NCBI RefSeq assembly: GCF_964204645.1
Contig: NC_134027.1
Coordinates: 16,950,560-17,014,559, forward strand
Origin: Tubulanus polymorphus
Lineage: Eukaryota; Animalia; Nemertea
DNA: 64,000 nt
Direction: 5' to 3'
Part shown: one piece after another, positions 17,710 to 61,769 of the stretch
How the letters are laid out: each line of letters opens with the position of its first letter
Position numbering within the stretch: the first letter of the stretch is position 1
Translations under genes and position numbers: made by a program
The notes under the pieces: model-generated
The model's database searches: none
The model's input: only the letters and a program-made list of their open reading frames with translations
Told to the model about the DNA's origin: nothing

Positions 17710-18243
17710 AGTAATAGGGAATAAGTTGTTTCAAGCCAAAGGTCGAAGGGTCGAAACATAAATTCTCGCACACTCGAATTTATTTTCCGACCCTTCAACC
17801 TTTAACTCGAAACAACTTATTCCCTATTATTCTTAAAATATTCATATATATGAATAGGAATAACTTCTAAAATCAATTTTAATAAAAAATTTGTTATTAA
17901 AATGGAGAGTAAACAAATACACAGTGAATTCTTAGATAGAATCGAAGATACTTCAAACGTCAAATCTGTAGATTATAAATTCAAAAAGTTAACAGAATTA
18001 ACAATTCATAAGACATATCTAATTACAATTATTGATACAGTTACTAATAACTATGGAGATAAATTAGTTATCCACTTAGAATATGAAGGATTATAAGGAA
18101 GTAAATATAAATTCAGAACATATTTACCAGATAGATTTCATAGATTATCAAGTGAAGATTTAGAAGAATTATGTTCAGGTGATTTCTATTTCATATACAA
18201 ATGTAAGAATGAAAAAGGGCACCATGAAATAGATTTCGAATAA
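17710..18243 (+). repeat. Polinton A left TIR (terminal hairpin 17710-17831 plus small gene)
   Basis: Reverse complement of 55889-56405; starts AGTAATAGGG. Confidence 0.88.
17902..18243 (+). pseudogene. TIR-encoded small protein (putative ssDNA-binding/OB-like), premature stop
   Basis: Copy of 55889-56230 with TAA at 18094-18096. Confidence 0.85.
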
Positions 18244-18280
18244 TATAAAATCAATTTTAATAAAAAGATTTGTTATTAAA

Positions 18281-23339: not shown

Positions 23340-23367
23340 TCAATTTTAATAAAAATATATACTATTA

Positions 23368-26534: not shown

Positions 26535-26564
26535 AATTTGAAATATTATAGAAACTATTTATAC

Positions 26565-26664
26565 ATCTATGTACTAGACGTACGAGTAAGAATCCAAGAT
26601 TCTTGCCAAGAAAGTAAGAAAGTAAGAATTCTTGGATTCTTACTCGTACATCTAGTACATAGAT
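26565..26664. repeat. ~40-bp-arm hairpin downstream of the ATPase
   Basis: ATCTATGTACTAGACGTACGAGTAAGAATCCAAGA...TCTTGGATTCTTACTCGTACATCTAGTACATAGAT. Confidence 0.9.
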
Positions 26665-26806
26665 AAATAAATTATTAAATGAAATAAATAATAATGAATA
26701 AATTATATATTAAAACTATGTTTATAATTTATGTTTACACAGGGGTACAAATATATATAAATATACTTTATATTTAGAATAATTATTCTGAAACTGTATA
26801 TATATA

Positions 26807-26896
26807 AGTAATTAGAAAAGTAGGCTTTCAGATCAGAGTACGAGAGTACGAGACACCACTCATCACCACAAGTAATTTTTTTTCCTAATAAATGGG
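26807..26896 (+). repeat. Polinton B left TIR
   Basis: Reverse complement of 50709-50798; ends in TAAATGGG start codon context. Confidence 0.93.
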
Positions 26897-27218
26897 AGAT
26901 AGAAAAGCATTCTTAGCAACAATAAATAACAGAATAAAACCAGCAAAAAAACAATTTGAAATAAAAAAGTTAATTGATGTTACAAAAGAAATTGAACATA
27001 AAATATTGAAATTAGAAAAGATAAAAACTAAATATGGAGAGAAAGTATCAGCTAATTTAAGCTACTGTAATGTTAGTACATCACGAGAATTTAAAGTGTT
27101 TTTACCTGATAAATGGGTTTCATTGAGTATGGAGGAATTGAAAGATTTAGTAGGATTTAAAATAATATATCATGGGAAAAATGAAGACGGTCATCATGAT
27201 TTAGAAATTGTTGATTAA
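26892..27218 (+). CDS. Small Polinton protein (putative OB-fold ssDNA-binding), homolog of 55889-56230
   Basis: Shared KKL..(T/N).YG.K....L...F...LPD...LS.E.L..L...IY.GKN..GHH pattern; function inferred. Confidence 0.8.
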   Translation: MGDRKAFLATINNRIKPAKKQFEIKKLIDVTKEIEHKILKLEKIKTKYGEKVSANLSYCNVSTSREFKVFLPDKWVSLSMEELKDLVGFKIIYHGKNEDGHHDLEIVD

Positions 27219-28230: not shown

Positions 28231-28599
28231 TTAATCCATTTTTTTTATTATCAATTTTGGAATTTCAGAAGTACTTTCATTTTTGATAGCAGTTGGTTCA
28301 GAATTACTAATATCATGAATTTTATTTGATTTCTTATACCAATCATACCCAATCAAAATGAATACAATTACAAATCCAACTGTAAAATATAAATATTTAT
28401 CAAATATTCTACTATTAGAAGGAGTAGAAATAACAATATTTTCACCATTTTTATTAACATTTTTATTACTTATTTTTTCTTTTACAGCTTTTTTATATTC
28501 TTGTGATTTAATTCCTAATTGCCGAGACCATTCAATTTGTTTCTGAGTTCTCGGTTTTTTCTTCACAGTTAATTCCTTCACTTCTTTCACCTCGCTCAT
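28231..28599 (-). CDS. Basic single-pass membrane protein
   Basis: 122 aa, TM YLYFTVGFVIVFILIGY, TAAATG start, homolog in Polinton A. Confidence 0.75.
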   Translation of the reverse strand: MSEVKEVKELTVKKKPRTQKQIEWSRQLGIKSQEYKKAVKEKISNKNVNKNGENIVISTPSNSRIFDKYLYFTVGFVIVFILIGYDWYKKSNKIHDISNSEPTAIKNESTSEIPKLIIKKMD

Positions 28600-29137
28600 T
28601 TATTATAGAAATATTTTTACTTTCAATATTTGAAAATGTTATAACCCCGGTTGATAATAATGTCATAAATCCACCTAATTGAAATGATAAATATCCAATC
28701 CATTTATTTAATTCAGTCATAACTAAATAATCATTTTTTAAATCGGAATATAATCTATTTTCATTTTCAATTGGTAGTATATAATTACATAATTTACTAT
28801 AACCTTTTACTACATTTTCTGATATCGCGTCATTAATTCTAGCTGTTCTCGCGGCTTCATAAATCTTAAATAATCTAATAATTTCATCTGATTTCATTGT
28901 ATCTAATTCATTATAAGTTAAATTTTTACCGACAAAATTTTTACATTTTCCAGATGCTATTAATATTTCTAATTGATGTTTACAATAAAGATAATATTCA
29001 TAATTATTATTTGTTGTAACATTATTTAAAGCATCATCATCTGGAGTTAATTTTGTTTCTGTTATTCCTAAATCATCTAAAGTTTTTTCAATTGAAACAT
29101 CACCATTTTTAGATTTTATTTTCTTTTCACCTCCCAT
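28532..29137 (-). CDS. Hypothetical Polinton protein with C-terminal hydrophobic segment
   Basis: 201 aa, TAAATG start, homologous fragment at ~24310-24380. Confidence 0.75.
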   Translation of the reverse strand: MGGEKKIKSKNGDVSIEKTLDDLGITETKLTPDDDALNNVTTNNNYEYYLYCKHQLEILIASGKCKNFVGKNLTYNELDTMKSDEIIRLFKIYEAARTARINDAISENVVKGYSKLCNYILPIENENRLYSDLKNDYLVMTELNKWIGYLSFQLGGFMTLLSTGVITFSNIESKNISIINERGERSEGINCEEKTENSETN

Positions 29138-29401: not shown

Positions 29402-29909
29402 TTAAATAAATTCATATTTAAATGGGTGTTGTAATCTAAATAGTAATTTTGATCTTTTAATATTTTTCAACTCATCCATATATTCATTATGTAAATCATG
29501 TGGAATAATATCATTTTCCTCAAGTGCATTTTTCATCGATTTTCTATCTTTATTGTAGAATAAAACTAGAAATGTAATGTTTTCTCTAAAGTCTTTAACA
29601 ATTGAATTATATTTTTGATTTAAAACCCAAGTTGTTATCCCAAAATGTCTCCCAGAGAAAGCTAAATAGCATAACTCACTTTCTCTTACTTTTGAATCAT
29701 GTAAATTTGCACAATCATCTATGATAAATAATGTATTTGATCCTTTATAAATATCAATTGCTATTTTTATACAATTATCTAAATTTTCTTTTACTGTTTT
29801 AGGATCTAATATAATAAATTTATTATTTCTAGTAATATTTCTATCATAAGTTTGATTAAATTCATATGTTGGACAAAATAATACTATATTATCAAAATAG
29901 TTTTTGTAA
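29402..29909 (-). pseudogene. Polinton B ATPase, C-terminal two-thirds (left of the BEL element)
   Basis: Near-identical to 36725-37059, then continues to a natural stop. Confidence 0.88.
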
Positions 29910-30332
29910 GGAATAATTCCTGAAATTCTGCTTTATTGTATTCTGTATACTGTATATGATATATTTCTATGGTTGTTATTTCATGGTTTCTGGTCATGGT
30001 AATTCTATAGCCTGAGAATTTGTATAGTTCAATAGATATATCAGATATTGAGATTTTTGGTCACTTGTTATATGGATTTAGACCTGTAAGGTTGTGTTGC
30101 TGTATTTGAGTAAAGGGTGAAGATTTAAATTGAAGGTTTAGACAGCCAAATATTACGGTAAATTGCTAATATAAAGATATTCTCTTATGTCAATAATTAT
30201 ACAAATTTATTTATGGTAATTTTCTATTTGTTTGTAGTTAATCGTGCATCCGTGTTTGTGACGTCTGAAAATAAATGTCCTAATGATTTTTTGCCACGGA
30301 ACATGAATCTTACGTATCGGTTGATCTTCACA
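29905..30332 (+). repeat. 5' LTR
   Basis: Direct repeat of 36279-36706. Confidence 0.95.
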
Positions 30333-30348
30333 TTTTATTAACGTAATA

Positions 30349-33300
30349 ATGGCTACAGCAGCAACTGGCCAACAAGATGTTAGGCCAAAAGAAACAAGAA
30401 GTAGGTCGCTGACCGAAAAAGGTGTCGAATACCAGAAGGAGAATAAACTGAAAGATAGAAAAAGTCTCCTGAAGAAGCTGAACAACCTGTCTAGTACTCT
30501 TCTGTCAGTTATTGAGCACAGTGACTATGATGTTGTCCAGAATTCATACAAAGACTGGATCAAGACGTACGAGAATTTCTTGCAAGTTTCAGATGAGTAC
30601 TGTCTTCTACTCAGTTCTAAAGAAAAAGAGAATTTGTCGGTCGAAAGTAACGAGATGAATACATACTTCAACCAAGTCAAAATGGCGGCTGAAAATACTT
30701 TGTCGGTACTCGCAAGATCGAAACGGTCTGCTGAATCAAGGAAGTCTGTTAGATCAAAAGCTAGTTCAGTACGCTCTGATTTGAGTAAGGGTAGCTCCAT
30801 AATATCTGCTCGTTTGAAAGAAGAACAGAGAAAAGCTGAGCTTAATGTCTTGCTGAATAGTATGAAGAAAAAACAGACTCTTGAGCTTGAGAAATTGCGG
30901 CTGAAACAACAAGAAGAGTTTTTAGATTTGAATACGCAGCTGGAAGTTAGTGAAGCGAAGAGTAACGTGATTGAAACACTTTTAGATAGGGAATCGAATA
31001 AGTCAATGATTGATGATAAATCGTTCCTTCCTGAACCATTTCCTACACTTCTGAAAAATGAAATAGTTGAAAATGATGGTTCTTACAGACCTTTGAATCC
31101 ACGTGCTACTACGTTCATGCCATCTGATGTCGGAAGCGTTGTTAATGCGGAACCAAGAGGTATAGATTCGATTGTGAAGCATATCAAAAAGCCGTTTGTT
31201 GAAATAAAAAAATTTGACGGAAATCCTCTTGAATACCGGCGTTTCATCCGTCAGTTCAATTCTAGAATTGCTGAGAATACGGACGACGACGATGAACGGC
31301 TAAACTTTCTCGAACAATTCACAATTGGTGAGGCAAATAGAATTGTAACAGGTCTTAGCTATATTGGTTCAACACGAGGATATCAAGCTGTTCTTACAGA
31401 GTTTGAAGAACGATACGGTGACTCGGCGATCATTGCAAATGCTTTGTTAAAGAAAGCTATAAACTGGCCTATGATTAAGTCAGACAACAGTAAAGGCTTG
31501 GACGAATTCTCGATTTTCTTGTTAGAAGTAGAGAATGCTGTGAAAGATATAGATGCATTGAAACTTCTTGAGTACCCTGACAATCTGAGGAAGTTGGTGG
31601 GTAAATTACCATGGTCGCTTCAAGATAGATGGAGAACTATAGTACAGACAACGCGCTCTGCTGGTAATACTATAAATCTGAATACCTTAGTGAGTTTTGT
31701 ACGGAAGGAGTCAAAAAAGGTGAACGACCCGATTTTTGGTAAAGATATGATGGCTGCTGCGTTAGATCAGAAGAAAGACAAAAAGTCTCTGCGAATATCA
31801 CAGGGTAGCCGAAATACTGTTGCTGCACAGACGGGGAGCATTTCTCATACGAATCAACAAAACTCATTTAATCTTGCATTGAAGAAACCATGTATATACT
31901 GCGCTGGCGATCATGTATTAAATGATTGTAAAGACCTGTCTAATGTGGTCTTTGAAGAAAAAATATCTTTTCTTAAAAGAAAAGGCCTCTGTTGGGGTTG
32001 TCTCCGATCTGGACATCAGAAGAGAAATTGTAGATTGAAGATGAACTGTGATATATGTAAACGGTTGCATCCAAGTGTACTGCATGATGATTCTAGGTCA
32101 CTTCCTGAAAACCCAGCAATTATGACACGAAGAGATCAGAATCAGAACACGATATCAGATGTAAAAGATGGAATTCCCTGTGGCGCCATAAATGATGGTG
32201 AAAAGAAGACAGATGGATTCTGTACTATGGCTATACTTCCAGTTAGAGTGAAAGTGAAGGGAAGAATTCCAGAAGTGATAACTTTCGCCTTCCTAGATCC
32301 TGGAAGTAGTATTTCTTTTTGTACTTCGTCGTTGTTGAAGCAGATCGGCGGTATTGGCAAGAAAGTGAGATTGAATCTCGACACTATGGCGAGGTCTACA
32401 ATGCTTGATACTCAGATTGTTCATTGTTTAGAAGTCAGAGGTTTGGAAACTGAAGACGTAGTTTTCATGCCTGCTGTTTATACTACAGAGCAGATGCCAG
32501 TTTCACCACTGCATGTGCCTACAGAAGATGACATCCGTAAATGGTCGCACATGAGTGATGTTAAATTGCCTAAGATAGATGCAGAAATTGGTCTGTTGAT
32601 TGGCAATAATATTGCGGATGCATACACACCGTTCGAGTTACGGACAGGCCCTGCTGGATCACCACATGCTTCCAGAACTAGACTAGGATGGGTCGCCTGG
32701 AATGTTATTAGATCTGGTGATGAAGACGATGATATAGTTACCGACACTGTTGACAAAATCAGCTGTGCTGTGAGTTCTCTTGATCAATTGGTTCAGGAAG
32801 CTATAGATTTTGACTTTCCTGAGCGAATTGCTGAAGATAAAAAACAATGGTCAGTTGAAGATCATAAATTTATGACGATGATGGAGTCCAATGTAAAAAT
32901 AGAGAATGGACAGTACCAATTACCAATGCCATGGCGTGACAAGAATTTGAGGTTTCCCAATAATATTCGGCATGCTGAGAAACGACTGTCAAATCTGAAA
33001 AATAAGCTGTTGAAAAATGACAAGTTTCGACATGACTATAATGTCTTTATGGACAATATATTGGCTAAAGGCTACGCGGAACAGGTTCCTAATGAAGATT
33101 TGCGTTTGGAAAATGGTCGTATATGGTATATACCTCATCACGGGGTATATCACCCCAAAAAACCTGAAAAAGTCCGTGTCGTTTTCGATTGTCCTGCACT
33201 TTATGGTGGAGTGTCTTTGAATTCTCAATTGTTACAAGGGCCAGATTTGACTAACACTTTGGTTGGTGTGTTGATACGTTTCAGACAAGAAAGAACCGCA

Positions 33301-35841
33301 ATAATGGCAGATATAGAATCTATGTTTTATAGAGTAAGGGTTGCACCGGATGATAAAGACTGCTTGAGATTCTTATGGTGGCCGGATGGTGATTTGAACA
33401 AGAAAGCCATACCATTCCGTATGTTAGTTCACTTATTTGGGGCAATCTCATCCCCGAGTTGTTCTAACTGGGCTTTACGCCGGACAGCCACTGACAACGT
33501 TAGCAAGTATGAAGTAGAAGTTACCAATACAGTCTTGAAAAACTTCTATGTTGATGACTGTTTGAAGTCTCGTGTACAAGATGGTCAAAATCCAGAATTT
33601 GTGATGAAACTGATATCTCTGTGTAAAGAAGGGGGCTTTCGACTCACCAAGTTTGTAAGTAATGATCGTTCTGTAATTGAAAGTTTGCCAGAAGAAGAGC
33701 TTGCTAAATCTTGCAAGGAGTTGAAGAGTCTGGATTTTGGTTCGCCAACAGAAAGAGCATTGGGCGTCCACTGGAATATAGAGAACGACACTTATGGCTT
33801 CAGGATAACTTCTAAGCATCAACCAAATACACGCAGAGGGATTTTGTCAACGGTCAGCACAGTCTATGATCCTTTGGGTATTGCTGCCCCATATGTACTG
33901 CCGGTGAAAATTCTGCTACAGGACTTATGTAGAGAGAAGCTTTCATGGGATGAAGAAATTCCTGAAAAATATCTGAAAGTTTGGGAGAAATGGCAGGAAG
34001 GTTTACCTGGCCTTGAAGAGTTGGCTATATCACGATGCTTCAAACCTCAATGGTTTCATGGTTCTTCGAAATCTTGTCAGCTGCATCATTTTGCGGACGC
34101 AAGTGATGTTGGGTACGGCACTGTATCATATTTGCGCCTTGAAGATGAAAATGGTCAAGTACATTGTTGTTTTATATTTGCTAAAAGCAGAGTAGCTCCT
34201 TTGAAGAAAATGACAGTTCCTAGGATGGAATTAGCTGCAGCTGCATTACTGATTAAGATGAATAAGATGATGTTGGAAGAATTGGAGTACAGTGTTTCAA
34301 ATGTATATTTTTGGAGCGACAGCACTGCAGTACTGAAATATATTGCTAATGAAACTGCTCGTTATCACACTTTCGTAGCGAATAGAGTGAATTTAATTAG
34401 AGATGGTTCAAGTATTCAGCAGTGGAAGTTTGTAGATGGTCATCTGAACCCAGCAGATTATGCGTCTAGGGGTTTGTCACTGGGTTGTATAGAACAAAAC
34501 TCAGTAGTATGGTTACACGGCCCGGAGTTCCTTTGGAAGCCAATATCTGAGTGGCCACGTCAACACGGTGTTTTACGGTCCCTGAGTGATGATGATGTTG
34601 AGTTGAAGAAGACTTCTAATGCTGTACTTTCGGTTTCTGATGATGATCCTATAAAACATCTATTTAACTACTACTCAAGCTGGCATAGACTCAAACGTGC
34701 CGTTGCATGGTTTTTAAGGTTGAAAGATTGTTTGCTGTTGAGAGTAAGTGAACGTCTTTCTGGTGAAAACGCTAATGCTGAACGATTGAATACCAATAAG
34801 CTGAGTACTGTTGATCTTCAAAGAGCCGAGCTGGCAATTATTAAATGCGTACAGGAAGATTATTTCAGGAAAGAATTAGTGATTCTCCGTTCAAATGATA
34901 GAAAGTTGATTCCCAGAGGTAGTCAATTGTATCAACTAGATCCTGTTTTAGAAGACGATATAATCCGTGTTGGTGGTCGGCTGAGAAAAGCATATTTTCT
35001 TGAATATGAACAACGACATCCGGTTGTATTGCCTAGATGTTCTCATGTGTCGAAATTGATAATGTTGAGTGTTCATGCATCGGTCGGGCATCTTGGTAAA
35101 AGCTCAATGTTAGCCCGATTGCGCGAGCGTTACTGGATTTTAAGGGCTAATCAACTGGTTAAGGATATAACGAGGAAATGTGTTTTATGTAAAAAGTACC
35201 GTGGTCAAGTTTGTAATCAGAAGATGGCAGATCTTCCTCAAGAGCGATTGTTGCCTGACAATCCGCCATTTACTAATACGGGAACAGATTACTTTGGCCC
35301 GTTTGAGGTAAAACGGGGTCGTTGTATTGAGAAGCGTTATGGTGTTATCTTCACCTGCCTGGTAACTAGGGCTGTTCATTTGGAGGTCTCGCCTACTCTG
35401 GACACATCTGGTTGTATTAACGCTTATCGCAGATTTATCGCACGACGTGGAAATGTACGTCTAATTCGATCTGATAATGGAACCAATTTTGTTGGAACCA
35501 ATCGAGAGCTACAGAGGAATATTGATTGTTGGAATAAGGACCAAATCCATGATTTCTTATTGCAGAACAATGTCAAGTGGATTTTTAATCCTCCAGGTGC
35601 GAGTCACTTTGGAGGTGTATGGGAACGCCTCATTCGTTCCGTCCGTAAAATCTTGTTTTCATTGATGAAAGAACAAGGTTCAAATCTAAATGATGATAAT
35701 TTATCCACATTGTTCTGTGAGGTCGAGTCGATTTTGAATAGTCGACCTATATCTACGTTATCAAATGATCCAAATGATCTACAACCTTTAACACCTATTA
35801 CTGTTACACAAAGGATCTACTTTTCCTCCCGGACTATTTGA
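30349..35841 (+). CDS. BEL/Pao Gag-PR-RT-RH-IN polyprotein (C-terminus frameshifted; native tail continues to ~36169)
   Basis: Triple Cys-His gag knuckles, FLDPGS protease, ADIESMF and FYVDD RT, FADAS RNase H, TDYFGP/SDNGTNF/WERL integrase. Confidence 0.96.
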
Positions 35842-36278
35842 CAAATCCGATTTATATACTCGACGTCGTTGGAGGCAAGTTCAGCATATTGCGAATGTTT
35901 TCTGGAAGCGGTGGACATCTGAGTATTTGCATCTCCTGCAGATTCGCAGTAAATGGAATACTGCGAAACGAAACGTATGTGTTGGAGATATTGTCTTCAT
36001 CGTCGATTGATCCATCCGTAACTCGTGGACTCTATCGCGTATTTCAGAAGTCCATCGTGATCGAAAAGGTTTTGTTCGTTCGGCTTCAGTAAGAACGGCA
36101 AAGGGTACTATTTTTCAGCGTCCTATTGATAAGCTGTGCGTTCTCGTCGAAAATGAAATTAAACTTTAGATTCTCTTTGTTACTTTAGATTCATCGTGCT
36201 TAACAGTCAAGAATAGGTTTTTGTTTTTGGACATTATCGTTATTATGTTAATTGAGTTTCTCAATTAGGGGGCGGGTA

Positions 36279-36706
36279 TGTAAGGAATAATTCCTGAAAT
36301 TCTGCTTTATTGTATTCTGTATACTGTATTTGATATATTTCTATGGTTGTTATTTCATGGTTTCTGGTCATGGTAATTCTATAGCCTGAGAATTTGTATA
36401 GTTCAATAGATATATCAGATATTGAGATTTTTGGTCACTTGTTATATGGATTTAGACCTGTAAGGTTGTGTTGCTGTATTTGAGTAAAGGGTGAAGATTT
36501 AAATTGAAGGTTTAGACAGCCAAATATTACGGTAAATTGCTAATATAAAGATATTCTCTTATGTCAATAATTATACAAATTTATTTATGGTAATTTTCTA
36601 TTTGTTTGTAGTTAATCGTGCATCCGTGTTTGTGACGTCTGAAAATAAATGTCCTAATGATTTTTTGCCACGGAACATGAATCTTACGTATCGGTTGATC
36701 TTCACA
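36279..36706 (+). repeat. 3' LTR
   Basis: Direct repeat of 29905-30332. Confidence 0.95.
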
Positions 36707-37160
36707 AGTCATAAGAAAGTAATCTAATGTTTTCTCTAAAGTCTTTAACAATTGAATTATATTTTTGATTTAAAACCCAAGTTGTTATCCCAAAATGTCT
36801 CCCAGAGAAAGCTAAATAGCATAACTCACTTTCTCTAACTTTTGAATCATGTAAATTTGCACAATCATCTATGATAAATAATGTATTTGATCCTTTATAA
36901 ATATCAATTGCTATTTTTATACAATTATCTAAATTTTCTTTTACTGTTTTAGGATCTAATATAATAAATTTATTATTTCTAGTAATATTTCTATCATAAG
37001 TTTGATTAAATTCATATGTTGGACAAAATAATACTATATTATCAAAATAGTTTTTGTAAACAGTTTCTAATAAATTTAATATAAAATAAGTTTTTCCACA
37101 ATTTGTTACACCAGAAATTAACATATTATGAGGCTCAAATATAAATAATTCCTTATTCAT
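36702..37160 (-). pseudogene. Polinton B packaging ATPase, N-terminal part (interrupted)
   Basis: GVTNCGKT, FIIDD, SGRH, NQ motifs of A32-like ATPases. Confidence 0.92.
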
Positions 37161-38288
37161 TTATATATTTTTAATTTTACTTGATAATATCCATTCATTA
37201 AATTTATCTGGCCATCCAACCCATTTTACTAAAGAATATTTTTTTCTTTTAATACTTTTTGTTTTTAATACTTTTTCAATTTTATATTCTTGTTTTAGAT
37301 TTTCAGTAGTTAAACTTAATTCTTCTTCGTAAAAGTAGCCATCAACTTCTTCACCATCTAAATCTTCTAATTTATAGACATATGGTTTTGTTGTTATTAC
37401 CTTTTTTATTTTATATATTTCTCTAGTAAAATTTCGATCGTATCCTTTGTCAAATATCTTTTTATACTTAGAAATTCTAACATTTTGACCAACTTTAAAT
37501 TTAGGTTCACCAAAATCATCTACAAGAAATGCTCCATATAAATTATTCCAAACAATTTCAGCATTTTCAGATTTTCTAGCATCAATAGGTTTCATTCCAA
37601 TAGAAGAATGATAAGAATTATTATATCCTTCTATCAATTTTAGCAAAACATCAATCCATTTAAAAGTATTATTTGCTGTAAAATATTTCCACATTCTTGT
37701 TCTTAATGTTCTATTAAATCGTTCAACAACTGCTGCTTTTTTATCCGATTTTGTTGAAAAATATTTAATATTATGAAAATCTAAAAGTCCATGAACTAAT
37801 GAATTATCAAATTCTTTTCCATCATCAAATTGAATTTTTTCTGGTTTTAGTTTACCACCTGAAAGAAATTTTCTTAAAACATGTGATGTTTGTGCAGCAT
37901 CTTTTCTATAAAGTGGGAAGCTCCATACATAACGACTAAAAATATCAATTATATTCAATATCCACCAATAATCATTATTATCTTTTTTAAGATTTTTCAT
38001 ATCAATTAAATCTCCTTGCCACTGTTGATCTACATAACTTACCATAGTTTTACGAGTTTTATATTTTCTAACAATTTTTTTATGTGTTGTATATGTTGGT
38101 TGTTCTAACATAAATTCATTTATATCTTTATATTTAACTAAATTTTGTGGGATTATCTTATCTAATTTATCTTGTTTTACTTTACGCCATATATTTTTAG
38201 TAGAAGAATAAGCAACCGAACTCTCAGGGTTGTAATATAAATTTCTTAAATATTGTTCTTTAGTATTAGGAGTTTTTTTACCACCCAT
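37161..38288 (-). CDS. int: Polinton B retroviral-like integrase with C-terminal chromodomain
   Basis: DDE: WQGDLIDM, IQFDDGKEF, VERFNRTL; YKIEKVL...LVKWVGWPDKFNEWI chromodomain; intact 375 aa. Confidence 0.95.
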   Translation of the reverse strand: MGGKKTPNTKEQYLRNLYYNPESSVAYSSTKNIWRKVKQDKLDKIIPQNLVKYKDINEFMLEQPTYTTHKKIVRKYKTRKTMVSYVDQQWQGDLIDMKNLKKDNNDYWWILNIIDIFSRYVWSFPLYRKDAAQTSHVLRKFLSGGKLKPEKIQFDDGKEFDNSLVHGLLDFHNIKYFSTKSDKKAAVVERFNRTLRTRMWKYFTANNTFKWIDVLLKLIEGYNNSYHSSIGMKPIDARKSENAEIVWNNLYGAFLVDDFGEPKFKVGQNVRISKYKKIFDKGYDRNFTREIYKIKKVITTKPYVYKLEDLDGEEVDGYFYEEELSLTTENLKQEYKIEKVLKTKSIKRKKYSLVKWVGWPDKFNEWILSSKIKNI

Positions 38289-38318: not shown

Positions 38319-39556
38319 CTAATATTGAATACTATCTAATTGAGAATTTACAATATTTAATTGTGCGTCAGATATAATATAAATGTGCATTTTAAAATTT
38401 TTGATTCCTTTATTCTTTTTCATGAATAATTGTATTCCATCTTTAGTGTTCTGTATTTTTTTTCCAGAACCATGTAATGAATTATCTTCAGTTGTTCTAA
38501 AATCTAACCATAATGCATATTTATTGCCGGTATAATAATCAATTTGATTAATATTACAATTTTCAAATGATTTTACTTTTTCATTCATAAAATGTTTTCT
38601 AATTTCTGGCCATTGATCATTCATTCTCATTCCTTGACAAAATATTTTATTTGCTATTCCTTCGATAGTTATTTCTACTTTTGTTATTTCAGGATTATAA
38701 TAATTATCAACATTTATTGCGCCATTAGTATACGTTCCAATGGTAAAAAATATTAATATACCTTTAATAGATCTTCTAGGAAAGTTAATATTCTCATTAA
38801 TAATTTCATCATTTGCATTAATAGTGCATCATCAATATAATCATATAATAATGAAAATCCTTGATTGTATTGAGTTTGAATTGTGCTAGCAATATTTTCA
38901 TTAGTTATTGTGTTATATTCTAAACATATATTCGATAATTTATAACTCATATCTTTAACAACGCTAGATAATACAATTTCATTTACAGGAGCAAATGTTA
39001 TCTCAAATATAATATCTTCTTGAATTGCGTATTTATATAAAGGTGCATTATTATTTATCAATTCAAAATCTAATGGAATTTTATATTTGCTTCCATAAAT
39101 CTTTTTAATCAAATTATCTACGTCATTATTTACTACTGCGTTATTGGCTTCAGATCTTAATTTATTTTGGTTTTCTGATTGAATTCCTTGAAATATCATA
39201 TTATTTCTATTTTCTTTAGTTAACCATAAATCTTTATAATGCATAAATAAATTATAATCATCTAATGAGAAAACTGTTTCTGGACCAATCTTTATTGTTA
39301 ACTTTTTAATCAAATATCTTCCAACATTATCAACGACATAATTATTATTATTGCCAGATACTTTTATATCGGCTGATAAATAAATACTGTTTGGAACATA
39401 AAAAGTATTTTGTGTTAATCTAGGAATTCTAACATATAAAGTTTCATCGGGATTAATATTTGAAGGGTTATGAGTAATTATCTGATGTGATCTTTCTGCT
39501 TTAATAGCATTAGATATTCTATGATTCTTCGAAGGACTTATATAACTCCCACTCAT
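38319..39556 (-). pseudogene. Major capsid protein (double jelly-roll), frameshifted
   Basis: THNPS.I.P...L.VR.P, KIPLDFE, L.NI.LEY, LWLDFRT..DNSLHGSG motifs typical of invertebrate Polinton MCPs; ~410 codons; adjacent to INT/ATPase. Confidence 0.75.
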
Positions 39557-42378: not shown

Positions 42379-42813
42379 TTAATAATTTATTAATTCTTTT
42401 AATAATTTATCTTGTTCTTCAACTGTTATATGACCATTTAAACTTATTATATAATCTAATGTGTTCTTTAATTTATTAATTTCTTTTATATTAGTTTTGA
42501 TTTTTTCTTTATTACTTTTTATATTTAATTTTGAACTTATACCAGTTAAAACACTTGAACTTAATCCTAATACACCAATTGATATAGCTAAAGGTGTTAA
42601 TGGGCTGAATATTGCTAGAAATGTTATTACAGAACTAATTGTAACCGAACCACTTATAATCAAATAATATATAATTTTACTTTTTAAATATTTTTTCTTT
42701 TTTATCTTTAAGTCACTTTCAAATTCTAATATTTGTTTTTCTAAATATGTTTTTAATTTAGTTTTATTTATATCATGAGGAATAATATCAATACTATCAA
42801 CTTTATCTTCCAT
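42379..42813 (-). CDS. Two-helix membrane protein with coiled-coil
   Basis: 144 aa, hydrophobic hairpin, TAAATG start. Confidence 0.75.
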   Translation of the reverse strand: MEDKVDSIDIIPHDINKTKLKTYLEKQILEFESDLKIKKKKYLKSKIIYYLIISGSVTISSVITFLAIFSPLTPLAISIGVLGLSSSVLTGISSKLNIKSNKEKIKTNIKEINKLKNTLDYIISLNGHITVEEQDKLLKELINY

Positions 42814-43866: not shown

Positions 43867-44619
43867 TTACTCTTTACATCTTATAACTAATTCATAAATT
43901 ACAGGAATGTTATTCAAATCAATTAAGTATCCATTATGATTTCTTATTTCTAATTTAAAATTATTAAATTGAGGAATACAAGGTTTGAAATCACATTCTG
44001 TTAAATTATAATTTATTTGCGTTCCAAATTCTTTAACATTCTTCAATGGTAAAATGTTTAGTAAACCAGAATTACAAGTTATATCTTTAGTTGCTTCGAA
44101 TGTTTTTGTAGGATCGATTAAATTGCAATAAATATAAAAATGTGTAAAAGGCATTATATTTGGTGTAGTATCAACATTTGAATAATATTTATCTGGTGTA
44201 ATTCCTAATAGTTTAGCTATAGGTTTTTTAACTGAAAATTGATATTTTTCATTATGAGCTAACCTTATCTTCATTTTATTAGAATTATCACTTTTCAAAA
44301 ATCTAATGTTAAATTCAGCATCACTACCTAATTTGATCCGAGCTTTTTTATTAATTTCCTGCGCTAATGTATTTAAATTATATAATCCTGGTTTTAAAAA
44401 TAGATAATTCCATTTATCCTTACTCTTGATTGAAAAAAATAAATGTTCAAGACTTTTAGCTGTTATATTATAAAATGAGTTACATAAACTTATATTTACT
44501 AATTTTAAATCTACACAATTCTTGAATTCTCTATCTAATTGTATTAGTAAATTATGTGATTTATAATTTGTAAGTTTTCTAGAATCAATAAATATTCTGT
44601 ATTCTTTTAATTCTACCAT
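43867..44619 (-). CDS. Minor capsid protein (penton, single jelly-roll)
   Basis: FIDSR, NSFYNI, G.Y, LLG, YIYCNLI, LNILP, EIRN.NG..IDLN pattern. Confidence 0.8.
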   Translation of the reverse strand: MVELKEYRIFIDSRKLTNYKSHNLLIQLDREFKNCVDLKLVNISLCNSFYNITAKSLEHLFFSIKSKDKWNYLFLKPGLYNLNTLAQEINKKARIKLGSDAEFNIRFLKSDNSNKMKIRLAHNEKYQFSVKKPIAKLLGITPDKYYSNVDTTPNIMPFTHFYIYCNLIDPTKTFEATKDITCNSGLLNILPLKNVKEFGTQINYNLTECDFKPCIPQFNNFKLEIRNHNGYLIDLNNIPVIYELVIRCKE

Positions 44620-44687
44620 TATTTATAACATAAAAAAATTACCGCTCATTACTAAAAATTAATTTTAATAAAATTTTTCCTTAATAA

Positions 44688-46004
44688 ATGGATGAGAAGA
44701 TAGCATGCGAAATTTGTGGTGAACTTCTAAGAAAAAGTAATATGGCTCGACATATGAAAAAACATGATGAAAATTATAAACCCCCTAAAATAAACTGTCC
44801 AAATTGTAATAAAACATTCTCTAGAAATTATTTCAAAAAACATTTAGAGAAGTGTAAAAATAATAACTTAATAGTTAATGTTGACAGTAACGAAAGTAAT
44901 AATAATTCTGTTGAAGTTGAACCTGAAATTATTTGGAAAAGACCTTTCTTATTCTATGATAAGGATAATATAAAAGATCATTTCTGTGAGCCTTGTCGAA
45001 TAAAATATAACCCTGAAAATATAGAAGATTGGGAGAATCATCAATTTCGTAAAGTACATACAGATAAAATTTCTAATAAATTTGAAACTGAATTCAATGC
45101 AAGAAAAAATAATTTATTAGAAAAAATAAAATATGAGAAAACGTTACCAGATAATGAAGAAACAGTTGAAAAGTTAAAAAAACAATATAATGAATTAACA
45201 AGAAAAACATATTATTGTAAATATTGTAAATTGATTATTACAACAAGTAATTCAAATCTACATAATAGAACAATAAAACATAAAGAAAACGTAAGAAAAT
45301 ACCAAGAGCTTAATGAAGATCTATTACCAGTAAATTATAAACAAAAATGCCCACAATGTTATTATACGACCTTAAGACAAGAAGGTACTGTGTTATTTTG
45401 TGTTGATTGTGGATGGCAAAGGAATTTATGGGGTGAAGAAAAAACTAGAGATTTTCTTATAGAACCAAAATTAAATTATCTAGATGAAATTTTTAAAATA
45501 TTTTCTATAGAAGATCATACACCAGAATATATGCAATGGCTTGAAAAAATGAAAATAATAGAAAATAAAAATGGTGAAATAACTAAAAAAGATATTATAA
45601 AAACAATTATTCCACCAACATTTAACACAAAACAAAAGAAAATGTATTTATATTTATTATTTAACGATTATTATGAAAAACCTAAATTAACAGAAGAAGA
45701 TATGGAAAATATAAAAAAAATATTTAAACAAATATTAATGTATCATTTGGAAAATAGAATAACAGATTCAATAAATTATGAATTCTTTTTAAATAAGATT
45801 GTAAATTATTTAAACCTAGATATTATAATTCCATTTGATGAATTAACAAACAAAAAGAAACAAAGAGAGCGAGATGAAATGTGGAACAAGATAGAAATTT
45901 ATTTAAATGAGAAAAATGGAATGGAAGAAGAACCTGAACAATTAAATGAAAATGAAGAAGCTAATAGTGATTTCGAGTATGATGATATTGATTTTATGTT
46001 TTAA
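44688..46004 (+). CDS. Multi-zinc-finger protein with VLTF3-like (poxvirus A2/NCLDV late transcription factor 3) C-terminal half
   Basis: N-terminal C2H2-like fingers, Zn ribbon CPQC..CVDCG, then F..I......R...INY.F.L.KI...L.....F..L...K....D..W.KI...L. Confidence 0.7.
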   Translation: MDEKIACEICGELLRKSNMARHMKKHDENYKPPKINCPNCNKTFSRNYFKKHLEKCKNNNLIVNVDSNESNNNSVEVEPEIIWKRPFLFYDKDNIKDHFCEPCRIKYNPENIEDWENHQFRKVHTDKISNKFETEFNARKNNLLEKIKYEKTLPDNEETVEKLKKQYNELTRKTYYCKYCKLIITTSNSNLHNRTIKHKENVRKYQELNEDLLPVNYKQKCPQCYYTTLRQEGTVLFCVDCGWQRNLWGEEKTRDFLIEPKLNYLDEIFKIFSIEDHTPEYMQWLEKMKIIENKNGEITKKDIIKTIIPPTFNTKQKKMYLYLLFNDYYEKPKLTEEDMENIKKIFKQILMYHLENRITDSINYEFFLNKIVNYLNLDIIIPFDELTNKKKQRERDEMWNKIEIYLNEKNGMEEEPEQLNENEEANSDFEYDDIDFMF

Positions 46005-49000
46005 TGGCCATAAGGTAATGTTTTTATACCATCATCTAAAATATGCCTTTTATCATCAAATGGATTTAAACTAGTTTTTTCAACTTCATTAATGTACATC
46101 TCATGATCTTCTGATCTTAAACAATTCATCTTGTGTTTCATTACAATTGAGTTATATAAACACTTTATATAATCTTGAAATTCTATATGTTTATCAACCA
46201 CATGTTTTGTTATTCCTTTTAACTTTTTAGCTTCATGATCTTTTGTTCTGTAACTATACATTTTACTTCTTATCCCAACAAATTCAATCATTTCATCACC
46301 TCCTAATTCATCTTTAAATTTACCAGGAATCTTTTTATTATCATTGCTAAATAGTTCATGATCTTTAGGATAATTGCCAAAATCAAAATGATGTTTTAAT
46401 GTTTTTAAGTCTTTTGTTATATCATTTGTCTTGATTTTTAGTATGTAGGCGTCAGTATTGACTGCTATTAATGGAAATCCACAGTTAAATGTACCAACCT
46501 CAGTTGATAAATCATAAACATAATCTGTTGGGTTATATATTTCAAATAAATCTTTAACTTCTTCAGTTAACTCATTTTCTGTGTGGCTTATATTAAAGCA
46601 ATTTGGTTTAGATTTAATCAATCCAATATTCATATTAAAACCTAATGAATTGCATAATATATTTAATCCTGATATAGCAACTTTTCCTTTTTGAGCTAAA
46701 GATATTGTTTTGCGGTTTTTGAAACTTTTAGTACCATCGGCTGCGTAGAATCCAATGAAGAACCATTTTCTTAAATTATTTTTTGCATTTAATACATAAT
46801 CTGGTACTATCTTTTCTTTAGTTGAAGTATTACTTTTCATTATTGCATGAATATAGAATTCATTATTGTATTTTATAGCAAAATCTTTAGGATTATTTAC
46901 AAGTATTCTATAAACTGCTGATGATTTCATAACATCCATGATTTTAAAAGTTTTATTTGAATTAACTTCTTCGCAAAATTTCTTTATTCTTTCTAATAAT
47001 TTCAAATCTTGATTGCATAAATACCAACAATATTTAGTTCCACTAACATAATTATACACACCTGCTGAACCATCACCCATGAAAAATCCTTTGATAAAAT
47101 ATTCTTTTTCTTCCAATGTTTCGGGTTCTATATTATAAATATTATCAATTATTTCATCAAATGACATATGATTCATTCTTGGGTAAAATCTGTTGTGTAA
47201 TAATTCATCTCCAATTTTTATATCAGTTGGTTTTATTTTATTACCATTTTGTTTAATCAAACTATGGTCTTCAGTAATATCAACAAATCCTAATTTAGTT
47301 CTAACTCTATAGATTTTCTTATTCGTTTTATGTCTAATTATATTCTTTAATTTTTTCCATCCATTTCTCGTCCAAACATCCATTAATCCATTTATTTGTA
47401 TTAATTCTTTTTCACCATACGAAATATAAGATTTATTTTGATTAGGAATTATTTCTGAAATTCTTCTAATTAATATTTGGTTATTGTATTTTAATAATAT
47501 TGGGGTGTCTGCTGTAACAGAATCAAAATATAGAATTTCTATATGCTTTTCTCCAAAAAGTGGCTGCAAAACATTATAATAAAAATCATACATTAGTAAT
47601 TTTGATATTTCTAAAACTGTTGAACCAATGAAAATAGGTTTATTAAATTTCATTGACGTTCTTTTTAATTTTACCGCGGTCAAATAATCCTCAAACCTTT
47701 TATTTCCTAAATGTCTAGGACTTGATTGTAGGTGTCTCAATCGTTCAGAATTATTTACTAATTCAATATCATTTCTATTTCTAATATTTTCACATGTTTT
47801 ACCATAAAAACTATTATTCATCAATTTAAAGAAATCTTTTTCAAAATCTGTTTTTGATATGGTTCTCTGTTGAGTATTGAAATCTATATATTTTTCTAAC
47901 CACTTCGATTGATTAAATTCAATATATCTATGTACTTTCTTTATTTTCATTCCTTGTTTTAGATAAAATTTTAACATTCTATAATGAACAATATAATTGT
48001 ATTTATTATTTTGAGTAAGTATTAATTTTTCTGTAAAACATGATCTTTCGGTTTTATTTTCTTCTGGTATTCACTTAAATAACTATCATCTACAGTTAAA
48101 TGTTCTGGGCAATAAGGTAAGTTTCTTGTTTTAAACTTTATATTTTCAGGATATTCTAAATCAACTACAAAGAAATAACCAATTGGTGCTTCATCTTTTA
48201 AACTAATAATTGCGCTTTCCCAATCAGTTTTATCACCATTTTCAACTTCTGTTAATATAAAATTTTTATATGGTTGAGGTTGCATCATTGCCCAACCATA
48301 TAAATTATTGGCGTCAATATATAATAATTTATATTCATCATTTGCTTTAAAATACCTATCTCCCATAACACCACTAATTCCACCTCTAATTGATTTTTCA
48401 AATAATAAAACCATATCTGGTTCTTTTAATAAATCTAATTCTACATTTGTATATTTTAAACCACATTGCCAGGTTAAACCAGGACTAGAGTAGCAATAAC
48501 AAGGATCAACATTAAAATGATTCAAATTAACTTCTCTAAATTTTTCAAATATGTCAGCCAATATCATAACATCTGATTTTAAATATAAATCAACTAATTC
48601 GCCATGATTTTTCATCTTAAAATGGTTCCAAATATTTAATGTTCTATTAAACACTTCGTCTTTCACATACTCCTCTTTTAATTTATCATAAAATTGATCT
48701 TTTAATAATTCTGTTACATTAAAATCATCATGTGTTTTATAAAATGAATAAGGCATTGCGCCTTTATATCTCAATAATTTAAAATCTTGGTCATTTGGAT
48801 AATAATATCGAGTTATAACAAAATCATTATCAACTAAACTTTTTGATTAATTATCTAATGAACTTGCTAGAAATCTATAAGAATCTAAAAATCTAATGCA
48901 ACCAAATTGAAATGAAATATAATTTTCAGATGTTTTAGCTAATAGTTTAAAATCATATTTTCTTACATTTGCTTCATTCATAGCATTATATTCTTCTATT

Positions 49001-50713
49001 TCTTGATTAATTGCACCCAATTTTCTGATAATTGTTTTATAAATAGATGGGTATCATATCCTGATAAATTATGAAATAATATTGGTACGAAATTTACTTT
49101 TTTAGCTTGTAAATTGCAATCTTCATGAGCAGCTCCACGATATTTTGAATTCAAATGATCATGATCTCTAACTTTTTTATCAAATGAATAAAAATGTTTT
49201 TCACAATAACAACAATGAGTTGCATAATTAAAATCAATTTCATCTTCTTTTATCATAACTATTCTTTTATTTTTGTTTAATAATTTTGCAAAATCACTTT
49301 CTAATTTAATCATTTTATCACAGAAATCATTAACTACATTTTCACCTCTAAAAGAAATATATTGACTTTCATATAATTCGGGATAATTTGATTTTATATA
49401 AATTCCATAAGCAGCAGCTCTTTGATGAACTTTTTCAATTGTATTTATAATTGGTGGGTCTTGTATTGTGTCTTCATTTAATTCATTTCCTTTATCCATT
49501 GATTTTAATAATTGCTTTTTGTTATATATTTCTTTTCTATCTTGATCAGTTAATTCTTTATTCAACGATTCAAAATCCCCATAAATTACAAATGGAACAA
49601 TATTTTTAAATTTATGATTAGTAAATTTCAATTTATAATCTTTTTCTGTTGGCATTATTAATTTACAAAAATCTTTATTATATAATGTTTCATATTTCCG
49701 ATAATCTGTTATTCTACAAACATTTTCCTGTGTTGGATGTAAACAACTAATAATTGACCATAGAAAACATTTATTATCTTCATTTTGAACATTTATTACT
49801 GCTTTTGTTATAAATGGTAATTTAATATAAGATGATGCTTTAATATCCTTTTCTGTTGTAAAGTTTGAATCATTTTTAAACATTTTATTACTTTTTGATG
49901 TTTTATTTCTTTTTGTATTATAAACATTTAAATCTAAATATATAATTTCATTCAATGTTAAGCCAGAACCCTCAAAATATCTTTCTTCAATATGACATTT
50001 AAATTCATTTAATATTTTTTCTAACTTCTCTTTTATTTGTGTTTTTGAAATTATTTCTTCAGAGTGTGTTTGAATATTATAATTCATTTTTTCTTCTGAC
50101 TTTATAAAACTTACTTTCCCAGAGATACTAATTTTTGGATATTCAACATCTGTTATCAAATCTAGTATTTTTCCATTATTTCATTAAATTTACTATAATC
50201 TTCTATTGTTGTACCTTTAAAGAATCTAAATATAATAGCTGCAGGACCAATTTTACTATGTAATGTTTCTAAGATTTCAATTGTATCTTTTATTTCTAGT
50301 GAATCAATATAATTTCTAACATTTTCCATGTAAGGTTTATTTGAAATGGATTTAGTTTTTGAAGTTGATTCTTTTACTTTTTGAGGTTTATTATCAAAAT
50401 AATCTTCTCCTAAAACATTATTACTCAAATTTTGATGGTGTTTTTGTGATTCGAGATGTCTATTATAATTCCTTTTTACTATAAATTCATTACAAACTTC
50501 ACATTTTATTTCATCCACATTCATATTTTCTAATCGTTCTTTTCTTTCATTGGAATTTTCTGGAGTTTCAAAATCTATAACATTTTTTATATGATTTGAA
50601 GATTTTTCATGTTTAGATTTATTAGATTTATCGATGTATTTTTTACAATATTGACAATAATATTGATTTTTATTGACATTATTGTTTTCTAGTTGGTGTT
50701 CATTCTCCCCCAT
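46001..50713 (-). pseudogene. polB: pPolB of Polinton B, intein-containing, fragmented by frameshifts and an in-frame deletion
   Basis: ORFs 50162-50713, 48996-50159, 48022-48774, 46001-47977 carry all PolB motifs; YFD^TDA. Confidence 0.95.
46457..47521 (-). mobile_element. Intact 355-aa intein with LAGLIDADG homing endonuclease
   Basis: Block A SVTADTP, B DITEDHSL, C KGFFMGDG, D KIVP, E IGFYAADG, F YVYDLST, G IAVN, followed by +1 Thr. Confidence 0.95.
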
Positions 50714-55871: not shown

Positions 55872-55888
55872 TTATTTTACATATTTTC

Positions 55889-56230
55889 TTATTCGAAATC
55901 TATTTCATGGTGCCCTTTTTCATTCTTACCTTTGTATATGAAATGGAAATCACCTGAACATAATTCTTCTAAATCTTCACTTGATAATCTATGAAATCTA
56001 TCTGGTAAATATGTTCTGAATTTATATTCATTTCCTTTTAATCCTTCATATTCTAAGTGGATAACTAATTTATCTCCATAGTTATTAGTAACTGTATCAA
56101 TATTTGTAATTAGATATTTCTTATGAATTGTTAATTCTGTTAACTTTTTGAATTTATAATCTACAGATTTTACGTTTGAAGTATCTTTGACTCTATCTAA
56201 GAATTCACTGTGTATTTGTTTACTCTCCAT
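55889..56230 (-). CDS. TIR-encoded small protein (putative OB-fold ssDNA-binding)
   Basis: Intact 113 aa; homolog of 26892-27218. Confidence 0.8.
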   Translation of the reverse strand: MESKQIHSEFLDRVKDTSNVKSVDYKFKKLTELTIHKKYLITNIDTVTNNYGDKLVIHLEYEGLKGNEYKFRTYLPDRFHRLSSEDLEELCSGDFHFIYKGKNEKGHHEIDFE

Positions 56231-56405
56231 TTTAATAACAATTTTTTTAATTAAAATTGATTTTAGAAGTCATTCCTATTTATATATATGAATATTTTAA
56301 GAGTAATAGGGAATAAGTTGTTTCGAGTTAAAGGTTGAAGGGTCGGAAAATAAATTCGAGTGTGCGAGAATTTATTTTTCGACCCTTCGACCTTTAGCTT
56401 GAAAC
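55889..56405 (-). repeat. Polinton A right TIR (outer tip truncated)
   Basis: Reverse complement of ~17727-18243; hairpin 56302-56405. Confidence 0.88.
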
Positions 56406-59231: not shown

Positions 59232-61769
59232 TACAACTTTAAAGAGAATATAACAATAATGCACCTGTCACGTGTATGTTATTTATACCCAGTAAATGAC
59301 GCCTCAAAATAAATGTATTTATTATTTACATAATGATCAACAACTTCATGAAATTGATCATTTTGGGGGCATATGCCAACACTGTAGCTTTTTCCAGATG
59401 TCAGTAGACTTAAAAAAACCACTTCCCTCTCATCATGAACTTTATCACAATTTATTTCTGCCACTTGTGTGTGCTTAGCACACATTTGAAATTCAAAACA
59501 TTTGCGTTCACTATTCGTTTTTTCTCCATTTACATATAATGATTGTACGTATGTACATGAGATGAGCTATGATTCTATGAAATAGCGGAGTATTAAATAA
59601 AAGTACAAATCAGTCTTATCGTTAAGGCTTTTATCAGCATTTTAAATTACAACATTACTTAAATCAACCGTCATCCACACTCAAGAGATATGCACGAAAT
59701 CGAAAAACAGTTGGACATAGAATGTAATAATGCATCACATATGTACCAATGAAATGCCGCTTTAAAACTTACTTTCGAATTTATTCAAGCTTTTATTTCA
59801 CCTTTTTGATGCGAGATACCACATTAAGATGGCCACGCTTATGCCGTTCCTTGATTAAAGTTCAAAATTTAATAGTGTCATGGTATCATTGCTGGCAAGC
59901 ATAGCGCCTTATACCTATAGGAAAAACCTTCCACCATCGACGGTAATATTCGTGGAAATACAACTAAAATATATTCATTTTACAAAGAGGTTCAGAAATT
60001 TTACACGGAAGTAATACTAATACATACTGTACTCAAATATTCACATATACTTTTCTATTGACATAAAAGTTACCACAATAAATGCGTCTCGCTATCTTTC
60101 GATACATGGTAGCTTTGTGACATTAACAGTTTTGTGGTATTTGTACACGCATTTATATTCATTTTCGAAGCCATTGTCGTCAGAATGTTCTTCAATATCT
60201 CCAGATGTATAATCAAATGATGCGTAACAGGTTTCAACTGAAAATAAAACGATCGTCCAAAAAAGAGCGTAGTTGTATTGGTTGTATTTCCTTTCACTCA
60301 AAAAAATTGCATTTGCCTTTAGGGAAAAATTCTGACGTTTCAAAACGTATTTTTACCAATGCGGCTAGAAAATATATTATAAAGTACAATACTTAAAAAT
60401 CCTAATTAACATCGAAATTCGAAAGATGCTACGGGGGCCGGGCTTTCTAGAAACCTGCCAATGATTTTTAGAATGAGCCCGATCAATGCAGCAAATGAAA
60501 AAAAAAAACAGTAAATTCTTCTTAATAAGGAAAAACGAGAAAAAATGATGTTACAAAATTACCTTGCGTTGCCTCTCTGAATGACCCCGCCAAAGGCTCT
60601 GTTCCAATTATGACTGGCACATCGACGTCAATCGAATCGTACATACCACTCGGTTCAATGCAAACCTAATATGAATCAAAATGTACAAATGTATTCGTAT
60701 CGAACAACTGTAAAAAAGTAAATTTCGATATTTTTCAGTACACAAATTGAATCAAGAGCATAGTCTGGGTCCCAGATCCCTCCTACTGCACATTGTGCGG
60801 ATTCTATGAAATTTCAGGGTTTGGTGGAAACATATATGGCGTAAATTTTAGAAGGGTGCCCACTCATCCAGGCCTTTTTTAAAGATTCCTCCCATTTGTC
60901 CAAGTGCGTATGCTGAATATGATGTAAATAAACCGATTTCAGTGATCTTAGGGTTCAACTCCAGTTTTCTGGTTGAATAGTGACTTCTTTCGACAATCAG
61001 TAGCATTGTCAAAAACATTTCCTTCAACAATCCGACAATCAGAAACCAAACAACGTCGAGAAAAATTCCATCGACAATCCAACATAATAAATATCATTTT
61101 TCTAATGTGTCTATTCGAGTTAATTTGATGATAACAAATCAACTCAATTCATTTTGATTCCATACAAGGTCATAAAATATGACATGATAGAATATAACAA
61201 AATGTATAAACGGCGATGAGTGAAAGCATATAAATACCACAAATGTGCGCAAAAATGGCACTTAGATATTTAGATATATTTACAATATATTTAGTATCAT
61301 TCATTAGATAAATTAATTTCAATACATTTGAACGTTGCTAATAGTGCTTGCGAATGAATTTTTTACTTCATTCAGTATACAGCTGACATTCAATTAATAC
61401 ATGATATTAATCGCCGATTCTATTACAAACTGGGCAATTCAATTGACCCCTGTCCCTGTGTGAATACTATTATAGTGAATACACCCTGTCCTGTCCAGAA
61501 AAGCCTAGTCATCAGTTGACAGCCATTGAAAACGAAAATCACCGAGCACGTAAAACTTGCACATTAAACTCTATAGAATACAGGAATACATTTTACTCTG
61601 GTTCCTAATAATTTGTACAAAAAGGTAAGTAATCTAGATTGTATATCAACATCCAGAGATAGAACACCTAGTTCACTGTACACCATACAAGAAGGGTTGC
61701 GTGTTTTGACTCCTAAAACTATCTGGAGGAACTTTTTCATTCTTTAACTCATCTAATTTAGTTTCTAAG

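Follow-up and report, generated by a model that had tools for sequence, protein, structure and literature searches.

VLTF3, the A2 late transcription factor of poxviruses, is treated as a hallmark of the Nucleocytoviricota in the accessible text of two reports (PMC11253617; PMC8715426). Nevertheless, the available parts of further sources place it also in elements outside this group, namely in stony coral polintoviruses (PMC11131425, citing Krupovic and Koonin 2016), on a MELD virus map (PMC8502044), in Zephyr VC123/VC126 and on Polintoviricetes-related maps (10.64898/2026.06.19.733378), and in Tetraselmis polinton-like viruses (PLVs; 10.1101/2025.10.09.676808). Here we describe a VLTF3 gene fused to zinc fingers that lies in a Polinton within 64,000 nucleotides of the nemertean Tubulanus polymorphus (NC_134027.1, positions 16,950,560–17,014,559; hereafter the window, with all positions counted from its first letter). 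VLTF3 is an accessory gene of an element which encodes a protein-primed DNA polymerase B (pPolB) and an integrase, as in the published cases, where the elements are of this or of the PLV type. A VLTF3-bearing Polinton is thus an already known kind of element, and the surprise voiced in a preliminary description of this DNA, that the gene stands outside the standard Polinton set, was overstated. On the sequence evidence, the novelty would lie mainly in the finger fusion and, more important, in a promoter-like motif of the poxvirus late type which is found throughout the element. Neither feature is mentioned in the accessible descriptions of the coral, MELD, Zephyr and Tetraselmis elements. In addition, our literature search, which left subscription papers and bioRxiv supplements mostly uncovered, found no report of a poxvirus-type promoter in Polintons or of a TFIIB or cyclin fold in VLTF3. 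The accessible part of PMC11296320 describes entomopoxvirus-associated PLVs, and a word search of its main text found none of the terms promoter, TAAATG and VLTF.

The motifs which had led to the VLTF3 assignment in the preliminary description are all present in the 438 amino acid (aa) frame: CPQC at aa 221–224, CVDCG at aa 238–242, and INYEFFLNKI and DEMWNKI. With aa 212–415 as query, Pox_VLTF3 (Pfam PF04947) is matched over aa 330–407 with E 4.2e-6 and 27.0 bits; the scores of the C-terminal half are 27.0 and 27.6 bits at a curated cut-off of 25. The A2L ribbon family PF08792 did not score on the same residues. When the full-length protein was scanned, only zinc fingers were reported and PF04947 was missed, as it was on the full-length relatives P0001 and P0002, so that a VLTF3 within a fused protein can escape Pfam. 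In the ESM Atlas the VLTF3 clusters ranked at the top (0.96), and 28 of the 30 hits fell in VLTF3-bearing sets; one such cluster consists mostly of Preplasmiviricota, counting its five classified members.

Among 1.84 billion representatives, phmmer found four hits at E ≤0.001. P0001 (49% identity) and P0002 (38%) are both VLTF3 proteins with N-terminal fingers. P0003 is a partial match confined to the last helices and was excluded from alignments A2 and A3, and P0004 (28%) is a plain VLTF3 with A2L_zn_ribbon which is 60–63% identical to named entomopoxvirus VLTF-3. The latter proteins (P0009–P0011) are the nearest named members, with 24–28% identity to the Polinton protein. In alignment A3 the four ribbon cysteines are invariant and in register with entomopoxvirus VLTF3, and these cysteines together with the VLTF3 core are retained in three elements at 37–49% identity. 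As a control for AT bias, a profile made from the three Polinton-type rows alone scored 34–49 bits on five entomopoxvirus-type proteins; 1000 shuffled sequences reached at most 4.6 bits and reversed sequences did not score, which rules out a compositional artefact behind the poxvirus match. In the same control, hhalign gave 96.6% and E 5e-10. Other searches were less productive: a word-index search with aa 212–415 passed none of 353 candidates and, with alignment A1, P0003 alone; scans of viral contigs with the VLTF3 protein, alignment A3, capsid and integrase queries found no relatives; and sequence searches of the PDB found no solved VLTF3 structure. By its profile, cluster and structural matches (see below), the frame is a real VLTF3 gene. 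It shares with poxvirus A2/VLTF3 (PF04947 plus PF08792) the C4 ribbon followed by a helical domain, the aligned motifs and the same predicted fold, but differs in its low identity, in a 211-aa N-terminal four-finger extension and an acidic tail, and in being encoded by an element in which neither an RNA polymerase nor VLTF1 or VLTF2 was detected among the open reading frames (ORFs) scanned.

The start of the gene carries a signal which recurs through the element. We compared 15 hand-chosen gene starts, in each case the first ATG. Of these, 14 belong to genes of the VLTF3 unit and one to a terminal gene; fragments caused by frameshifts, duplicated copies and the window's second element type were set aside. 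TAAATG is found at 13 of these starts and at 35 of the 620 ATGs that remain in this DNA. The combination of TAAATG with a TAA exactly at −19 is found at 11 of the 15 and at only one of the 620 (Fisher p 1e-19, which is optimistic because the motif was defined on those very 15 starts). T predominates at positions −14 and −13. As an independent check, the motif occurs once in each of two further loci, L001 and L002, both times at the VLTF3 start. An extra upstream stretch, TTTAAT(A/T)AAA, precedes two of the 15 genes, VLTF3 and the terminal 113-aa gene, and is also found in L001 and L002. According to the accessible parts of PMC11980589 and PMC5294985, vaccinia late promoters have TAAAT(G) over the start codon and a conserved T ten bases upstream amid other Ts; vaccinia A2L itself is an intermediate gene, a class with more A-rich upstream sequence. 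The sequence pattern of the poxvirus late promoter is present here, namely the start-overlapping TAAAT(G) and a T-run whose centre lies about 10 nt upstream. From this pattern we infer promoter function for the motif, with transcription starting within the AAA of TAAATG.

In 24 IMG/VR loci with a related pPolB (29–42% identity) there was no VLTF3 match at E 0.001 in the sequence examined, and the one record searched of those behind L003–L005 lacked PF04947. In 23 of these loci TAAATG opens 13 of 207 long ORFs. In the remaining one, L005 (9034 bp, pPolB 36% identical), TAAATG stands at six of six long ORF starts, and no VLTF3 was found in the 9 kb examined; judged from its start sites, L005 may be a second lineage with poxvirus-type initiators. 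As the IMG/VR loci are partial and related, the link between motif and VLTF3 is an association and not a test of dependence.

The preliminary description had proposed a TFIIB-like factor, and this proposal stands in part. A predicted structure of the VLTF3 half, built with entomopoxvirus rows in the alignment, matched cowpox VLTF3 best in BFVD (E 9.8e-7, TM 0.61). The strands of the zinc ribbon are present in the model, and in comparison of the predicted model the ribbon corresponds to the N-terminal zinc ribbon of the TFIIB/TFB/Brf type. Thus the order of an N-terminal C4 ribbon and a cyclin-type helical fold, which is seen in TFIIB, Brf, TFB and poxvirus Rap94, is also predicted here, although with modest scores. 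Foldseek found nothing in the PDB at E 0.001, its weak rows being TFIIB, Brf and Rap94. On the other hand, a single repeat (TFIIB 124–218) accounts for the entire helical part in the alignment, and the second cyclin repeat and the B-reader/B-linker were not found in the model. Only about 16 aa separate the ribbon from the first helix, and only about 25 acidic residues follow the helical part. The model therefore predicts a reduced TFIIB-like layout of a zinc ribbon and one cyclin-type fold.

The added N-terminal fingers were found as described, four in number, but the DNA specificity suggested for them is not favoured by their sequence. The first finger is of the C2H2 and the second of the C2HC type, and the third and fourth have U1/matrin-type spacings. 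A classical DNA-reading C2H2 array is dismissed, as the types are mixed, the spacing is wide and there is no TGEKP-type linker. The fingers of the fusion score as U1/jaz/met-type, with zf-U1 matching aa 174–205 at E 1e-6; aa 1–211 gave only zinc-finger leads below 0.9 in the ESM Atlas. The fourth finger best resembles the N-terminal finger of the element's own pPolB (36% identity in the window and 41% in L001 over 39 aa), from which the fingers were probably recruited. The N-terminal fingers are common to the window protein, P0001 and P0002.

The claim that the gene is intact holds for its open frame only. In 1.9 Gb of genomic reads from the same species, VLTF3 is covered about 200–320-fold, mostly by matches of 90–99%, which implies many copies, read against no single-copy baseline. 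Of 62 differences from the window which at least 40% of the reads carry, 40 were listed; 36 of the listed ones lie in the ORF, and two low-support rows at an indel were dropped. The resulting 34 differences from the read majority comprise 7 synonymous and 27 non-synonymous changes, which fits a neutral expectation of about 25% synonymous (p 0.79). By this measure the window's copy is a neutral fossil. Retention of the open frame by the host was considered and rejected, as the differences are neutral and the chance of no stop codon is about 0.15 for an assumed 45 changes. Between the window and L001, dN/dS is 0.54–0.75 for VLTF3 and 0.10–0.35 for pPolB by a crude method in DNA of 77% AT; on these ratios, constraint on VLTF3 is present but weaker than that on pPolB. 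At the start of the minor-capsid-like gene 327 reads diverge from the window sequence, and the depth beyond is about 258. By eye, the diverging reads match the second capsid module of the window, in which a 113-aa gene replaces VLTF3.

How might such a gene have worked? As no RNA polymerase is found among the ORFs scanned, the polymerase must be that of the host or of a helper. We suggest, at slightly less than even confidence, that VLTF3 helped an RNA polymerase to start at the motif, and that this enzyme most likely belonged to a poxvirus-like helper infecting the same cell. A helper polymerase is favoured because an initiator which overlaps the start codon, with its T at −3, fits the AAA mode of poxviruses better than that of Pol II, and because the nearest named VLTF3 proteins are poxviral. 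The poxvirus polymerase starts within AAA and adds an A leader by slippage, which is not known for Pol II. In this mechanism the integrated Polinton would be silent until infection by the helper and would then be transcribed late, by analogy with mavirus and CroV. The zinc ribbon would dock on the polymerase as in TFIIB, VLTF3 would assist the helper enzyme at TAA–T-run–TAAATG starts, and the fingers would add nucleic-acid or protein binding instead of a classical C2H2 DNA code. A comparable way of life would be that of the entomopoxvirus-associated PLVs and the mavirus/EMALE virophages, double-jelly-roll elements which integrate and are linked to a larger helper virus; in mavirus the promoters also match those of the helper. 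For the element of the window, the helper is a proposal. More tentatively, and on balance rather doubtfully, this animal-type Polinton lineage may parasitize, in the manner of a virophage, a poxvirus-like helper still to be discovered, with late promoters before nearly all of its genes and with a VLTF3 of poxvirus descent, joined to pPolB fingers, that would draw the helper polymerase to these promoters.

The strongest competitor, though an unlikely one, is an autonomous nuclear route in which VLTF3 replaces TFIIB and recruits host Pol II to initiator-type promoters, giving an early-to-late switch with no helper. The predicted fold is TFIIB-like, the element integrates in the nucleus, and the TTTAAT(A/T)AAA stretch before VLTF3 and the 113-aa gene could mark early genes started by the host. 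In addition, mriyaviruses (PMC11253617) and ariadnaviruses, the latter without an RNA polymerase (10.64898/2026.08.29.747986), keep VLTF3 according to the accessible parts of these sources, so that a viral polymerase is not needed for the family to persist. These viruses resemble the window element in keeping VLTF3 in small or reduced genomes, but they also keep VLTF2 and belong to the Nucleocytoviricota, while the window element has a pPolB and a retroviral integrase. Against this route, the start-overlapping initiator would leave no 5′ leader, A-slippage being a trait of the poxvirus polymerase which Pol II is not known to share; the second cyclin repeat is missing and a B-reader would not fit in the short linker; and the motif is absent from other pPolB elements.

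It is distinctly improbable that helper or host factors read the motif alone, VLTF3 being a decoy against late transcription of the helper or a passenger. Such a role would agree with the weaker constraint, with the short linker and extra fingers, with the TAAATG starts of L005, and with the reads, as VLTF3 is absent at the minor-capsid junction in over half of the reads of the capsid module. On the contrary, the ribbon cysteines and VLTF3 core are kept in the three elements, and the promoter-like signal is conserved along with the gene. Finally, that the motif is no promoter but a product of tight packing, made up of a stop codon, a terminator rich in T or a poly(A) signal and the AT-rich context of the start and unrelated to VLTF3, is very unlikely: in 3 of its 11 occurrences the TAA at −19 ends the preceding gene, AATAAA overlaps several starts and the DNA is 77% AT, but the motif occurs in 8 of the other 12 of the 15 genes, stands before VLTF3 and pPolB, which have no same-strand gene upstream, lies twice inside upstream coding sequence, and is lacking in equally AT-rich relatives such as L007 (GC 22%), where TAAATG is found at one of ten starts.

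Table 1. Features of the VLTF3-bearing Polinton and of the inverted repeats around it (positions in the window).
Feature	Position	Strand	Evidence or remark
Left 525-bp inverted repeat: hairpin end and 113-aa-type gene	17728..18251	+	
201-aa and 122-aa genes	28231..29137	-	Likely VLTF3 unit continued past the retrotransposon; 201-aa gene has the full motif
A32-like packaging ATPase, truncated by BEL/Pao long terminal repeat (LTR)	36702..37160	-	Pox_A32 E 3.3e-12; LTR 36279-36706
Retroviral-type integrase with chromodomain	37161..38288	-	rve E 6.8e-9
Major-capsid-like gene, frameshift-split	38319..39556	-	Capsid_N E 0.009 (weak)
Tightly packed capsid-module genes of 114, 73, 140, 144, 200+123 and 474 aa	39581..43850	-	Most start with TAA–T-run–TAAATG
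250-aa gene heading the capsid module	43867..44619	-	Putative minor capsid; weak DUF5901 E 0.0076
VLTF3 promoter-like signal	44663..44690	+	A-rich stretch, TAA at -19, T-run, TAAATG overlapping start codon
Zinc-finger-VLTF3 gene, 438 aa, open frame	44688..46004	+	ORF listing, profile and cluster matches
Four N-terminal fingers	44706..45281	+	Cys/His positions; aa 7-26, 37-56, 100-124, 177-198
C4 zinc ribbon, aa 221-241	45348..45410	+	Aligns with A2L-type ribbon of entomopoxvirus VLTF3
Helical VLTF3 domain, aa about 258-412	45459..45923	+	Pfam core at aa 330-407; one cyclin-type fold predicted, bearing a helical insertion
pPolB	46001..50713	-	PF03175 E 7.4e-9; N-terminal U1-type fingers, LAGLIDADG intein
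Right 525-bp inverted repeat: partial hairpin and 113-aa gene	55881..56405	-	Leads into second capsid module without VLTF3

The surrounding unit (Table 1) is identified as Polinton/Maverick by its pPolB, retroviral-type integrase and A32-like ATPase; the evidence for jelly-roll capsid proteins consists of weak profile matches (Capsid_N E 0.009, DUF5901 E 0.008). An adenovirus-type cysteine protease was not matched in the 26 ORFs scanned, where broken or divergent genes could escape. VLTF3 is divergent from the capsid module, as had been described, with start codons at 44688 and 44619, and convergent with pPolB with an overlap of 4 bp. The same tail-to-tail arrangement is found in L001, where pPolB is unbroken (1336 aa). 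The L001 element is inserted in a host intron: an exon fragment of RhoGAP (L001:6415–6507, E 2.6e-6) adjoins its end, so that it is also integrated in a eukaryote genome. The unit of the window is decayed; its pPolB is fragmented into six tblastn segments with changing frames, a frameshift divides the capsid gene and the LTR interrupts the ATPase. The 144-aa gene (42379–42813, minus strand) encodes a two-helix membrane protein with a weak SLATT match (E 0.004), and SLATT genes are listed in the accessible PLV and MELD maps (10.64898/2026.06.19.733378; PMC8502044).

A BEL/Pao retrotransposon (29905–36706; 428-bp LTRs 99.8% identical, 1830-aa ORF) is inserted in the ATPase gene and flanked by a near-perfect duplication of 342 bp (29568–29909 = 36718–37059), which reflects either a recent insertion or an assembly duplication. 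The presence of a BEL/Pao element by itself points to an animal host. A second Polinton type (18281–27218, plus strand) has pPolB, an HNH-like gene, integrase and ATPase and lacks VLTF3. Its gene starts are TAAATG-like but spaced differently, and it could use VLTF3 in trans. In both pPolB types a LAGLIDADG intein occupies one and the same site (46459–47521, minus strand; about 21750–22806, plus strand). The intein arms are 86–89% alike, compared with 77% over the pPolB region, and the intein is absent from the L001 pPolB, which suggests that it has recently homed between families of Polintons. The accessible part of PMC11161782 mentions inserts of homing endonucleases in polinton pPolBs.

VLTF3 had also been placed between the terminal inverted repeats of the element. 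It is indeed enclosed by the 525-bp pair, but the 38.7-kb span between the repeats is a composite of the second pPolB-type element, the BEL/Pao element, the VLTF3 unit and a duplicate capsid module, and no target-site duplication is evident at the pair. Therefore the repeats cannot be taken as the unit's own ends and their ownership is doubtful. Imperfect palindromes, some 140 bp in length, form the element ends (17700–17839, 14575–14720, 56294–56405 and 61764–61922) and fold into a long hairpin (z −11.6); a related stem is seen by eye at the L001 end. Polinton ends are simple AG...CT, unlike these palindromes, which are possibly hairpin or replication-origin termini. Genes of a 108–113-aa family lie at the ends (55889–56230, minus strand; 17902–18243, 26892–27218 and 3899–4216, plus strand) and have no Pfam match. 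The copy at 26892 has the same 60 bp upstream as the pPolB of the VLTF3 unit.

VLTF3, a giant-virus marker called diagnostic of the Nucleocytoviricota in the accessible text of PMC11253617, thus occurs in multi-copy Polintons. Together with the sharply defined promoter-like motif it would form a matched pair that makes the transcription of Polintons, and their need for a helper, testable, and that also bears on the role of VLTF3 in genomes without an RNA polymerase.
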